A DNA stretch of 64,000 nucleotides, taken from assembly GCA_963713975.1 (NCBI GenBank), contig OY970218.1:800001-864000 (forward strand), in the 5' to 3' direction. This document shows positions 16,549 through 34,282 of the stretch, in pieces (within the stretch, counting starts at the first letter, position 1; each line of letters begins with the position of its first letter). The position numbers and the translations under genes are program-made. The notes under the pieces are model-generated. The model saw nothing but the letters and a program-made list of their open reading frames with translations. It was not told where the DNA came from and ran no database searches. Origin of the DNA: an uncultured Chloroflexia bacterium. Lineage in GTDB: Bacteria; Chloroflexota; Limnocylindria; Limnocylindrales; CSP1-4.

Positions 16549-16564
16549 TGGTCGGGGCGAGAGG
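16549..16564. repeat. att core copy 1 (tRNA-Pro 3' end)
   Basis: TGGTCGGGGCGAGAGG, 16/16 identical to 34206-34221. Confidence 0.9.
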
Positions 16565-16652
16565 AGGCAAACCTCCACGACCGACCTTAGCGTCCCGCAA
16601 GTCCGGCGGCCTTCGTTCAGCGGTGACTCACGTGGCGCCCGGCGTCGTCCGC

Positions 16653-17828
16653 TCAGCCGCGACCGACGACCATCGCCTCGTAGTCCACGAGGAGGTCGAA
16701 CAGGTCCGTGGCGGCGTACTGGCGGTCGTAGGTCCCCTGGCTGATCTGTGTGAGGACCCCGGCCTCGGCAAGAGACTTGAGCGCCGCGAGCGTCTGTTGC
16801 TGGCTGGTGCCGATGGCCGTACGCGCGGTAGGCGCCGAGAGGACCGGCAGTGCCGGCAGGAGCGCGATCAACTTCGACGCCGCCGATCCGGACCTCGGGT
16901 TCCCGGCGAGGTCCATCCAGCCCCGCTGGAGGGCCGCCACCCGGTCCGCCAGCACCACCGACGCCGATGCCGCATCCCGGGTCGCGGCGGCGAATGAGCC
17001 GATCCACTCGGCAAGCCTGCCCTCCCGGAACCCGACGAGGCCGTCCACGTACGCGCCGGGCCGCGCGGCCAGCACGATGGACACCGGTGGCACGAAGCGC
17101 ACGGTGGCACCCCGACGGCGCAGGACGACATGCACCAGACACCGTCCGACGCGACCGTTGCCGTCGAGGAAGGGGTGGATCGTCTCGAACTGGGCGTGGG
17201 CGATCGCGGCCTGGGCAACGACCGGCAGGTCGTCGCGACCGAGGAAGGCGGCCAGGTCCTCCAGCAGGCCGGAGACGAGATCCTCGGGCGGCGGGATGTA
17301 CCGGGCATCGGACGGGTTGTCCAGTCGACCGCCGATCCAGTTCTGCTCCTCTCGTACGCACCCCGGCCGCGCCCGCTCGTCGCCGGCCATCAGTGTGCGG
17401 TGGATCGCGAGCAGGTGGTCGACGGAGACCCGCTCATCGCCTGCACCGATCGCAATCGCCTCCTCCATCGCGGACACGTTCGCCGCGACGATTCGCGCGC
17501 TCCCCTTGGCCGCACGGGGATCGACCAGGGCACGGGCGAGGTTGAGGGAGCTGACGTCGTAGCCCTCGAGGCGGGACGAGGCCACCGCCTCCGATCGCAG
17601 GAGCAGCGGTCCGATCGCCTCGAGCCCGCCGACCGACGCCCGGTCGTTCAGGGCCCGGATCGCGGTCGCGGCTGCGGCCGCGAGGTCGGCCGTCTCGAAC
17701 GGGACGACCGGTGCGAGGGTGGCGACCGGGTCAGGCACGAAGGCCCGATAGCGGAAGGTGGCCCGGGCGCGCCGCCCGCCGATCGTCCCCGGATCGCCTT
17801 CCCAAACGCGCTCGACCGACCGAGGCAT
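16653..17828 (-). CDS. Fic family protein with C-terminal HTH
   Basis: HAQFETIHPFLDGNGRVGR Fic motif; EAVASSRLEG inhibitory-type motif. Confidence 0.95.
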   Translation of the reverse strand: MPRSVERVWEGDPGTIGGRRARATFRYRAFVPDPVATLAPVVPFETADLAAAAATAIRALNDRASVGGLEAIGPLLLRSEAVASSRLEGYDVSSLNLARALVDPRAAKGSARIVAANVSAMEEAIAIGAGDERVSVDHLLAIHRTLMAGDERARPGCVREEQNWIGGRLDNPSDARYIPPPEDLVSGLLEDLAAFLGRDDLPVVAQAAIAHAQFETIHPFLDGNGRVGRCLVHVVLRRRGATVRFVPPVSIVLAARPGAYVDGLVGFREGRLAEWIGSFAAATRDAASASVVLADRVAALQRGWMDLAGNPRSGSAASKLIALLPALPVLSAPTARTAIGTSQQQTLAALKSLAEAGVLTQISQGTYDRQYAATDLFDLLVDYEAMVVGRG

Positions 17829-18008
17829 GACTGTGGCACCCTTCACCTGCCGTCCAACAGTGAACGGATGGGCACACACTAGCCATCTAAACCTTCAATG
17901 TCAACGAACGAATGAAGGGTTGGACGGCGACCCGGCTCAGCGCCGACGGCGGGAAGGTGCGCGGAGCACGGAGCCCCGTGACGTCCAGGGGTCTCGGGGC
18001 TGATGACC

Positions 18009-18024
18009 TGGTCGGGGCGAGGGG
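18009..18024. repeat. att core copy 2
   Basis: TGGTCGGGGCGAGGGG, 15/16 match to the tRNA-Pro 3' end. Confidence 0.8.
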
Positions 18025-33582: not shown

Positions 33583-33632
33583 GGTCTGGATGATGCGCTC
33601 CGTCCGTGCCCACTGGCAAGGGCGCTGGGGTG

Positions 33633-33830
33633 TCAGGCGCCGGCCGGTCGAACGACGAGTCGCCGGATCGTCGCGACGGCGCGGCCGACGCGTGACGCGG
33701 ACGCAGGTTCGGGTTCGGGGAGCGGCGGGGCATCGACGCGGGCGAAGGTCATGCCGGGACGGCCTTCGTCGGCCCAGCCGTGGTGGCGCTCTCGGTCCCT
33801 GATCGCGAGGTATATGCCGAAGGGGTGCAT
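33633..33830 (-). CDS. Small hypothetical protein upstream of the LuxR regulator
   Basis: AGGAGG RBS plus ATG; 65 aa. Confidence 0.65.
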
Positions 33831-34205
33831 CGTCGCCTCCTGGTCGTCGATCGCATGATCGCGATATCCAGGAGGCTACGAACGACGAGCCGCGTCGCCA
33901 TCGTCGAGAACCTTATGTCGGCTGTGCGGCCGACCTCATTTTTTCTCCGCGGGACCATCGGGAGACATGCGGTCGATCCCCGCGGGCTGCTTGGCGGCGT
34001 TGCAGCACGGCACAGCACCATGGGCTCCGACACATCAGCCTCCCGCTCATCGCACGCACGGCCTTCCTGCTGGGCAGAAGGTCGAGTTCCCGGTGGGCCA
34101 GGTCGGTCACGATCCACTCGACGTCGGGTGCCGATGCTCACGGCTGGTCGGGAACGTTCGGCCCGGGGCCCCTGCGCCAAACGCGGGTCTGGCAGTCAGT
34201 ACGAA

Positions 34206-34282
34206 TGGTCGGGGCGAGAGGATTTGAACCTCCGACCTCATCGTCCCGAACGATGCGCGCTACCAAGCTGCGCCACGCCCCG
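34206..34282 (-). tRNA. tRNA-Pro (anticodon CGG)
   Basis: Cloverleaf CGGGGCG.../CGCCCCG-ACCA; anticodon arm CATCG-TTCGGGA-CGATG; T-arm GGAGG-TTCAAAT-CCTCT. Confidence 0.97.

Follow-up and report, generated by a model that had tools for sequence, protein, structure and literature searches.

The 64,000-nucleotide stretch analyzed here (the window) spans positions 800001-864000 of the 3.62-Mb, single-contig genome of an uncultured Chloroflexia bacterium, with a G+C content of ~70%; positions up to 64,000 refer to the window and higher ones to the genome. Between 16549 and 34282 lie four gene-bearing units, A to D, delimited by copies of a 16-mer, TGGTCGGGGCGAGAGG, the last of which is the 3' end of a tRNA-Pro(CGG) gene. 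In our judgement this region is quite likely a tandem array of four integrated elements, or of their remains, which were borne by large serine recombinases (LSRs), entered at the 3' end of the tRNA and afterwards lost their integrases.

The repeat array and its recombinase remnants

The 16-mer, hereafter the core, is exact at 16549, 21221, 30235 and 34206 and carries one mismatch at 18009, with all five copies on the + strand, just as an earlier reading made from the sequence only had reported. When up to two mismatches are allowed, the window yields 5 matches against 0.25 expected, and 5 or more were reached in 0 of 100 shuffles. The sequence-only reading also assigned the copies to the right isoacceptor, since the 3' 16-mer of the second proline tRNA, tRNA-Pro(tgg) (56149-56223, - strand), differs from the core. 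ARAGORN reports another, 89-nt "tRNA-Pro(cgg)" at 349217-349305, the 3' end of which is unlike the core. Genome-wide, nine copies exist at up to one mismatch, five of them in the 17.7 kb of the array and four elsewhere (1300577, 1301658, 1731268 and 1806165), none of these inside a tRNA, while a reversed-pattern control gave no match in the genome. The core is therefore not equally common away from the tRNA, but neither is it unique to the locus. The flanks of the copies at 1300577, 1301658 and 1806165 are attachment-site arm types known from arrays; those of 1731268 show no recognized arm type.

Beyond the 16 shared nucleotides, cores 3 and 4 have ~70 nt in common on their right (88% identity) and some similarity on their left. 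Rfam found no RNA family at the repeats and matched only two tRNAs and two riboswitches. The idea that a ~90-nt repeat might be a tRNA-like small RNA was dropped once a recombinase reading frame had been recognized there. Across core 3, the + frame reads "...CASCGRHLIGDTGRYRH...LFERVEVLG...AGYGRGER".

Two units, B and C, end in recombinase remnants and none has a complete integrase, on which the sequence-only reading and our family hidden Markov model (HMM) agree. Pfam found nothing at E<=1 in the two remnants or in the open reading frames (ORFs) across the other cores, save a chance-level match to DUF7374 (E 0.044) in the ORF at core 1, and the identity of the remnants came from an all-protein search alone. 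When the region 20541-21305 was compared with 1.84 billion representative proteins, 413 matched at E<=1e-3, of which 200 reached E<=1e-10 and 38 reached E<=1e-30; the alignments covered residues ~255-490 of proteins of ~500 aa. Full-length relatives carry the Resolvase domain PF00239, which scores 37.9, 57.2 and 38.8 bits in P0017, P0029 and intC, and 32.2 bits in the integrase of related genome G013 (cut-off, 23.3 bits); S26 of the "RES" motif is invariant in the family alignment. This catalytic part is missing from the window's own remnants. As for the C-terminal part, Pfam scores in the family fall below their cut-offs (Recombinase, PF07508, 18.6 vs 21.1 bits; zinc ribbon, PF13408, 21.4 vs 25.3 bits), and cysteines C282, C285 and C302 are conserved in the region that remnant 1 covers. 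A predicted structure of the family (pLDDT 83.3) was matched over 519-529 columns by serine integrases of full length, namely 9dxh, Bxb1 (9iu2), PhiC31 (9tep and 9rah) and LI (4kis), with E values from 1.8e-11 to 5e-10 and 11-17% sequence identity, while a sequence search of the PDB matched N-terminal domains only.

An HMM built from ten full-length members has four matches in the host genome: 820496-821284 (model positions 254-490), 830074-830316 (439-499), a scrap at 1198230, and intC (1303414-1304910), which is the only complete family gene there. Because of the ~500-aa protein matches, the Resolvase domain, the predicted structure and the family HMM, both remnants are LSR, the first a C-terminal half and the second the last ~60 residues. 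The serine recombinase identity proposed from the sequence only is thus confirmed. A relaxed HMM search revealed no credible remnant in the left flanks of the cores at 16549, 18009 and 34206 (best E 0.076). Family HMM and recombinase searches found no intact Pro-type integrase, of the GRGER-ending kind that the sequence-only reading had suggested looking for, in the window or the whole host genome, which has three serine and three tyrosine recombinase genes, none of them in the window. The features of the locus are listed in Table 1.

Table 1. Features of the array and its left flank, in window coordinates; gene layout from coding potential (G+C content at third codon positions, GC3) and Pfam
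Feature	Position	Strand	Remarks
Bestrophin-like gene, left of array	15570-16538	-	
Core copy 1, distal array end	16549-16564		exact 16-mer
Right flank of core 1, "type a" element arm	16565-16611		AGGCAAACCTCCACGACCGACCTT...
Unit A: Fic/DOC-family protein, 408 aa	16653-17879	-	PF02661, 67 bits; co-oriented with tRNA
Core copy 2	18009-18024		one mismatch, GAGGGG; hairpin in left flank
Right flank of core 2, unit B arm	18025-18127		CCGGCAGAT at 18042-18050
Unit B: S-adenosylmethionine (SAM)-dependent methyltransferase ORF	18229-19020	+	PF08241, 74.9 bits
Unit B: c-di-GMP-II-GAG riboswitch aptamer	18241-18325	+	RF03169, 71 bits (gathering score 40); upstream of methyltransferase
Unit B: F420H2-dependent quinone reductase / Ddn-like protein	19017-19556	+	PF04075, 66.6 bits
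Unit B: metallo-beta-lactamase-fold protein	19838-20440	+	PF00753, 80.5 bits
Remnant 1, C-terminal half	20496-21284	+	family HMM 254-490; zinc-ribbon region to "...AGYGRGER"; spans core 3
Half-site in remnant 1	21209-21217		ATCTGCTGG
Core copy 3	21221-21236		exact
Right flank of core 3, "type b" arm	21237-21304		88% identical to copy 4 arm
Unit C: hypothetical protein, 486 aa	21450-22910	-	no Pfam family; co-oriented with tRNA
Unit C: AAA_16-TPR-LuxR(GerE) regulator, 925 aa	24084-26861	+	
Unit C: DUF3558-like protein	26884-27546	+	below curated cut-off
Unit C: hypothetical protein, 517 aa	27548-29101	+	
Unit C: second DUF3558-like protein	29079-29681	+	below curated cut-off
Remnant 2, last ~60 family positions	30074-30316	+	family HMM 439-499; "...VFERIDVLG...RSGRGERGSPATTDLPITLRLAEPPEPFDW"; spans core 4
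Core copy 4	30235-30250		exact; within attP-like site
Right flank of core 4, type b arm	30251-30315		
Unit D: AAA_16-TPR-LuxR(GerE) regulator, 991 aa	30607-33582	-	
Unit D: putative ORF, 143 aa	33749-34180	-	no family
tRNA-Pro(cgg)	34206-34282	-	3' 16 nt = core copy 5; anchor (attB side)

The attachment core at the integrase 3' end

Many full-length relatives end in "...YGRGER", as the sequence-only reading had anticipated, and intact members read into tRNA-Pro(CGG). In P0029 and P0087, antisense reading of the tRNA 3' end yields the ending "YGRGERI*", whose stop lies in the T-loop. Other family members read the core DNA in another frame (VGARG), and the core is therefore conserved as DNA, not as protein. 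We inspected 80 family loci, mostly from metagenome-assembled genomes (MAGs) labeled Chloroflexota or Candidatus Limnocylindrales. A converging tRNA lies within 160 nt of the integrase gene end in 35 of these (29 Pro(cgg), 5 Arg and 1 Lys), while 28 have an exact Pro core at the gene end and no tRNA, being internal array positions or unintegrated forms. The remainder are eight loci cut by contig ends and nine with neither tRNA nor Pro core, so that 57 of the 72 uncut loci have a Pro core or tRNA at the gene 3' end. The integrase stop codon falls exactly 22 nt into tRNA-Pro(cgg) in 16 loci.

The host genome provides two further examples of such overlap. The intC gene runs 65 nt into tRNA-Arg(ccg), and the intB gene extends over 42 nt of tRNA-Arg(cct), whose distal repeat is found 8.8 kb away. 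The intB island (2958645-2967434, 8.8 kb), in which the integrase is intact, has a defense-type cargo: besides an AAA_25 ATPase and a Hypoth_Ymh protein, it encodes a restriction endonuclease of the Mrr type. The integrase-bearing elements that we inspected measure 5-12 kb and carry Replic_Relax, AAA_25, helix-turn-helix (HTH), AbiEii, Mrr and an insertion sequence. No phage genes were evident in them, and we therefore do not call them prophages.

Some of the core sites may also have the geometry of LSR attachment sites. At core 4, an inverted repeat is formed by GAAGGTCG (30224-30231; positions -11 to -4 relative to the core), which faces CGACCTTC (30268-30275; positions 34-41), for a total of 52 bp. 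The two ends of unit B hold a comparable pair, CCGGCAGAT on the left (positions 34-42 after core 2) and ATCTGCTGG on the right (-12 to -4 before core 3). Within unit C, GAAGGTCG likewise faces CGACCTT. Both arm pairs, that of unit B and that of core 4 and unit C, are symmetric about core positions 15-16 and span ~52 bp, the size of a serine-integrase attP. Inverted arms centered in this way would fit recombination of attP x attB through a staggered cut of 2 bp. Identity among all core copies ends at position 16-17, and strand exchange would take place at the right edge of the 16-mer, within its last two bases, in which case the element would supply the last ~15 nt of the tRNA. In the tRNA, the motif CGACCT starts at position 28, ~6 bp nearer the center than in the element arms. 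This resembles the offset between attB and attP half-sites that has reportedly been described for LSRs.

Arrays in related genomes and their cargo

Of 61 genomes of the genus, 53 contain the Pro core, the copy number ranging from 0 to 26 per genome, and the reversed-pattern control was blank in all 61. We compared nine arrays on long contigs, that of the window included. Their 79 sites all lie on one strand, downstream of the tRNA where the tRNA is on the contig (7/9), and delimit 70 units with a median of 2,347 bp (30 below 2 kb, 18 of 2-4 kb, 15 of 4-8 kb and 7 of at least 8 kb). At 21 of the 79 sites, the core is adjoined by an integrase gene or a remnant of one, which either stops at the core or crosses it. 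Three of these are full length, one is nearly so and 17 are C-terminal remnants, starting at family HMM positions 199 to 454. The full-length genes stand beside the tRNA in genomes G013 and G041 and internally in G015, and partial integrase matches lie beside the tRNA in G001. Facing these 17 C-terminal remnants is a single N-terminal scrap, an excess of 5' truncation that random deletion, which should produce the two kinds of piece in similar numbers, does not predict and that suggests preferential retention of the attachment-site ends. In the ten-site array of G055 no remnant is detectable, yet about the last 20 integrase codons are kept in five left flanks.

The comparison also bore out the expectation, formulated from the sequence only, that relatives would differ by gain, loss and reordering of units exactly at the cores. 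Homology blocks between the window and G013, G015 and G019 have their limits at core edges (16548/9, 18009 and 21236), and many blocks among the nine arrays start or stop 0-4 nt from a core in both genomes simultaneously. The most telling case is an integrase-less unit of 5,491 bp that is 94.2% identical between G013 and G041, while the backbone beside their tRNA is 74.6% identical. In both genomes the unit has one core at its start and another at its end, the latter degraded in G041, and all four of its neighbors differ. Similarly, a 91%-identical integrase-bearing element lies beside the tRNA in G013 and internally in G015. Contigs from soil, peat and sediment match unit B from 18008/9 to 21236 at roughly 93-98% identity, and one peat metagenome contig runs past 21236 into a unit-B-type arm, forming an attP-like junction. 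These data are assembled contigs of relatives, in which no run exceeded 0.09 of the sampled words, and they inform on presence and junctions, not on excision.

As for the arms, left and right types recur in many combinations across the nine arrays. The type a arm of core 1 is found again in G013, G019, G015 and G041 as well as at 1300577 in the host genome, the right arm of core 2 is conserved in G013 and G019, and one right flank type, AGTCGCGACGACGATATCGAT, accounts for 10 sites. A gap-free test for matched inverted arms gave at least 9 of 12 in 5 of 70 units, compared with 1.5% of cross-genome controls. Among the four units in the window, B and C alone show matched arms.

Several other islands exist in the host genome. 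An array of 27 kb at tRNA-Arg(tcg) (1729737-1757006) has five exact and two one-mismatch copies of that tRNA's 3' 16-mer, and its left flanks consist of ATGTCGCGACTCATG-like motifs in repetition. At ~9 kb from this tRNA stands intA (1746527-1748146), which is intact and is a serine recombinase of another family, and the array looks like a different kind of element. The distant Pro core at 1731268 sits within it. Two more, 1300577 and 1301658, lie 3-4 kb from intC, within the tRNA-Arg(ccg) island. Element arms flank 1300577 and 1806165 on both sides, so that they resemble complete attP sites, and the one-mismatch copy at 1301658 has a right arm of type-2. Islands thus seem to bear the scars of other islands. 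The 3' end of tRNA-Gln(ctg) (2577087) recurs 5.5 kb away at 2571574, with a 50-nt left flank identical to that of the tRNA and a right flank close to a tRNA-like one but with one inserted nucleotide; part of the tRNA may have been duplicated, or this may be another type of island.

The gene content that the sequence-only reading gave for the four units was recovered with Pfam and Rfam. Unit genes lie on both strands and come with their own regulators (a riboswitch and LuxR-type proteins), and beyond the tRNA the backbone resumes with an HTH regulator and glutamine synthetase III. In unit B, the methyltransferase probably starts downstream of the riboswitch, for example at the GTG at 18399. The depth of metagenome contigs peaks sharply over 18277-18319, within the aptamer, which is therefore widespread in those samples. 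A second c-di-GMP-II-GAG riboswitch (56536-56620; RF03169, 82 bits) lies ~300 nt from tRNA-Pro(tgg).

Of the 60 other genomes of the genus, 16 have an orthologue of the Fic protein of unit A (73-78% identity), which in nine is close to a Pro(CGG) or Arg(CCG) core. Pro cores bound the gene on both sides in the host genome, G013, G015 and G076 and on one side in G012 and G020. In four genomes its neighbor is an Arg(ccg) core or that tRNA, within ~350 nt upstream in three. The homology extends over the gene and ~80 nt only. Across the Fic loci of 23 genomes, the gene often shares the orientation of a Pro(cgg) or Arg(ccg) tRNA, or of a 3' fragment of one, and lies downstream of it at ~150-630 nt, and more distant paralogues adjoin Thr(cgt) cores. 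Fic is thus one cargo linked to arrays of different specificity.

Origin of the array and comparison with known systems

What has been observed directly is the repetition of the core, the identification of the remnants as LSR, the overlap of integrase and tRNA in relatives and the breakpoints at cores, and the following series of events would best account for it. Elements would integrate by means of an LSR of ~500 aa whose gene converges on the tRNA. The last codons of that gene hold the attachment core, that is, the final 16 nt of the tRNA in the GRGER or VGARG frame, and integration would therefore rebuild the tRNA end from element DNA, moving the former 3' fragment out to the element's far end. 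Successive integrations at one tRNA would stack units that are each bounded by cores. The integrase genes would then be lost from their 5' side while the attachment-site ends persisted, leaving integrase-less units with Fic, with riboswitch, methyltransferase, Ddn-like and metallo-beta-lactamase-fold genes, and, in two cases, with a LuxR-type regulator. Such units would reassort at the cores among lineages, and the arrival of an integrase-bearing element might make them movable again, in cis or in trans. In the host genome, the array is probably immobile, or frozen, because no cognate integrase is present.

Several observations weigh against this account. Neither units A and D nor the left flank of the tRNA hold a recombinase remnant, and the LSR origin of these two units therefore rests on their arms and on analogy. 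The arm test is positive in only the five units mentioned above, and a cognate half-site pair is not demonstrable for most. To our knowledge, canonical LSRs recombine attP with attB only. An occupied tRNA would be a hybrid site, so a second integration there would be left unexplained by LSR directionality. Moreover, several internal sites have terminator-like left flanks that resemble the native sequence downstream of the tRNA, a feature not expected from simple serial integration at the tRNA. Among five searched relatives, no empty tRNA-Pro site came to light, and two genes that lie left of 16549 in the window, the bestrophin-like one and that at 10398, are not syntenic with the tRNA but sit on other contigs or at a great distance; the distal boundary is therefore inferred from the last core only. 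The relatives are for the most part MAGs. The tandem criterion of Islander calls for an integrase in each island. Here, intact genes are found in 0 of 4 units and remnants in 2 of 4 in the window, with a full or nearly full integrase at 4 of the 79 sites of the nine arrays. The locus otherwise has the hallmarks of tandem islands at an RNA gene, with an intact tRNA, 3' repeats in the same orientation bounding the units, and variable presence with breakpoints at the repeats.

The alternative that survives best is that the system is active. The integrase-less units would then be minimal mobile cassettes with an arm on either side of a core, routinely excised and inserted one at a time by an LSR acting in trans, and the array a gene-capture platform, a functional analogue of the integron or of the staphylococcal cassette chromosome (SCC). 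The small size of the units, the surplus of C-terminal over N-terminal integrase pieces at cores and the many combinations of arm types would all fit, as would the 94%-identical unit with its four differing neighbors and the attP-like junction of unit B, whose integrase is truncated, in the peat contig. That contig may, however, be a tandem copy, and the junction data stem from assembled contigs of relatives rather than from excision products. Remnant lengths vary widely (family HMM starts between 59 and 454), as decay predicts, the units face both ways with regulators of their own, and the host genome has no cognate integrase. Internal junctions are attP-like, and canonical LSRs, as far as we know, do not recombine attP with attP. 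On balance, we find active cassettes unlikely.

We are just as doubtful about a wider version, according to which an LSR with the core in its own last codons would maintain tRNA-anchored, integrase-less cassettes reshuffled singly at cores, genus-wide and probably more widely among Chloroflexota (Limnocylindria-type MAGs), as the serine counterpart of the integron. In this version, integration would also swap the C-terminal tail of the integrase, arm-encoded in one state and ending in the "I-stop" from the tRNA T-loop in the other, which could sense the integrated state.

It is far less probable that the repeats are scars of ordinary tyrosine-integrase islands with unrelated serine fragments as passengers. 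While tRNA 3' ends are classic targets of tyrosine integrases, according to the Islander paper (PMC4383910), and the 10 right flanks of AGTCGCGACGACGATATCGAT type have no evident LSR link, only three tyrosine recombinase genes exist in the genome and 0 in the window. In addition, all 21 of the 21 core-adjoining integrase genes or remnants end at or cross the core, and 57 of the 72 uncut family loci have a Pro core or tRNA at the gene 3' end. Finally, we give practically no credence to the core being a chance match or a dispersed short repeat, similar to repetitive extragenic palindromes (REP) or miniature inverted-repeat transposable elements (MITE) and without link to integration: four genome copies do lie away from any tRNA, but three of these have array arm types, no shuffle reached five copies, the reversed control was blank in 61 genomes, 79 of 79 array sites share one orientation, and the core is exact while its flanks vary.

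As tools for engineering genomes, serine integrases are highly valued, and the general view is that they avoid tRNA genes. The present family, mostly uncultured and with 413 database relatives, targets tRNA-Pro(CGG) and Arg tRNAs, and the presence of the core inside the integrase gene offers ready-made attP/attB pairs and natural specificity variants on one core. The arrays display the build-up and reassortment of accessory genes (Fic, regulators and, in sister islands, defense genes) in Chloroflexota of soil, peat and sediment. They also pose a mechanistic question, that of how stacks form at an occupied site by an enzyme class with strict attP x attB directionality, while the 17-to-1 excess of 5'-truncated integrases suggests selection for attachment-site retention. 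Our literature searches found no description of this LSR family or of tRNA-Pro arrays, which is weak evidence of absence.

The closest published precedent is the ssrA island arrays of Dehalococcoides. As described in the sections of McMurdie et al. 2011 (PMC3146451) that deal with them, tandem islands lie downstream of a stable-RNA gene, bounded by its 3' direct repeats, with a serine recombinase of ~540 aa at the RNA-gene end and insertion in the T-loop/T-arm; about half of the islands have no integration module and are proposed to be cis-mobilizable or fixed. The arrays share with that account the tandem units, the RNA-gene 3' repeats, the serine recombinase beside the RNA gene and the T-loop region, and the hosts are again Chloroflexi, the present family occurring mostly in Chloroflexota MAGs. 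In contrast, the target is here tRNA-Pro(CGG), or Arg tRNAs for sister integrases, rather than tmRNA, and neither a second small recombinase (DsiA/CcrA-like) nor a six-gene integration module lies beside the integrases that we examined. The core is here within the last integrase codons. Our units, with a median of 2.3 kb, are also far smaller, and there are more of them, with as many as 26 cores in a genome.

Cis-mobilizable elements (CIMEs) lack an integrase but keep their attachment sites, are stacked beside integrase-bearing relatives and are thought to be moved with them. Units A-D are similarly flanked by attachment sites and devoid of recombination or transfer genes. Tandem accretion of CIMEs is on record for the ICESt1/ICESt3 family (Pavlovic et al. 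2004, as cited in the portion of PMC3146451 that discusses them). Those elements, however, use tyrosine integrases and a protein-gene target in Firmicutes, whereas accretion is harder to explain for an LSR. Serine-recombinase integration into the 3' part of a tRNA also has parallels, in the Mycobacterium AICEs (integrative, conjugative elements of actinomycetes) in tRNA-Leu and in phage phiRSM1 in tRNA-Ser, which the pertinent passages of Ghinet et al. 2011 (PMC3218068) call rare. The family and hosts differ, and those passages do not describe arrays of many small units.

Compared with the phage integrases Bxb1, PhiC31 and LI/A118, the family has a predicted full-length fold match and attP-like sites of ~50 bp with inverted outer motifs. 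It differs by its 11-17% identity, a shared core of 16 bp and an attP that overlaps the integrase stop region, and its elements carry Replic_Relax or AAA_25 rather than phage genes. The integron-style array suggested by the sequence-only reading holds insofar as small ordered units, probably built up by a serine recombinase and separated by a short recombination site, reassort one by one. The array is nonetheless not an integron, and the likeness is one of analogy: an IntI tyrosine recombinase, attI/attC hairpin sites and a common promoter are all absent, genes of both orientations come with their own regulators, the repeat is a tRNA 3' fragment, and the recombinase, rather than being resident at the platform, is carried along by the elements. 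The array is thus of a known kind, that of serine-recombinase island arrays at a stable-RNA gene, and is distinguished by its tRNA target, the core within the last codons of the integrase, the tiny and numerous units, and their genus-wide reshuffling.

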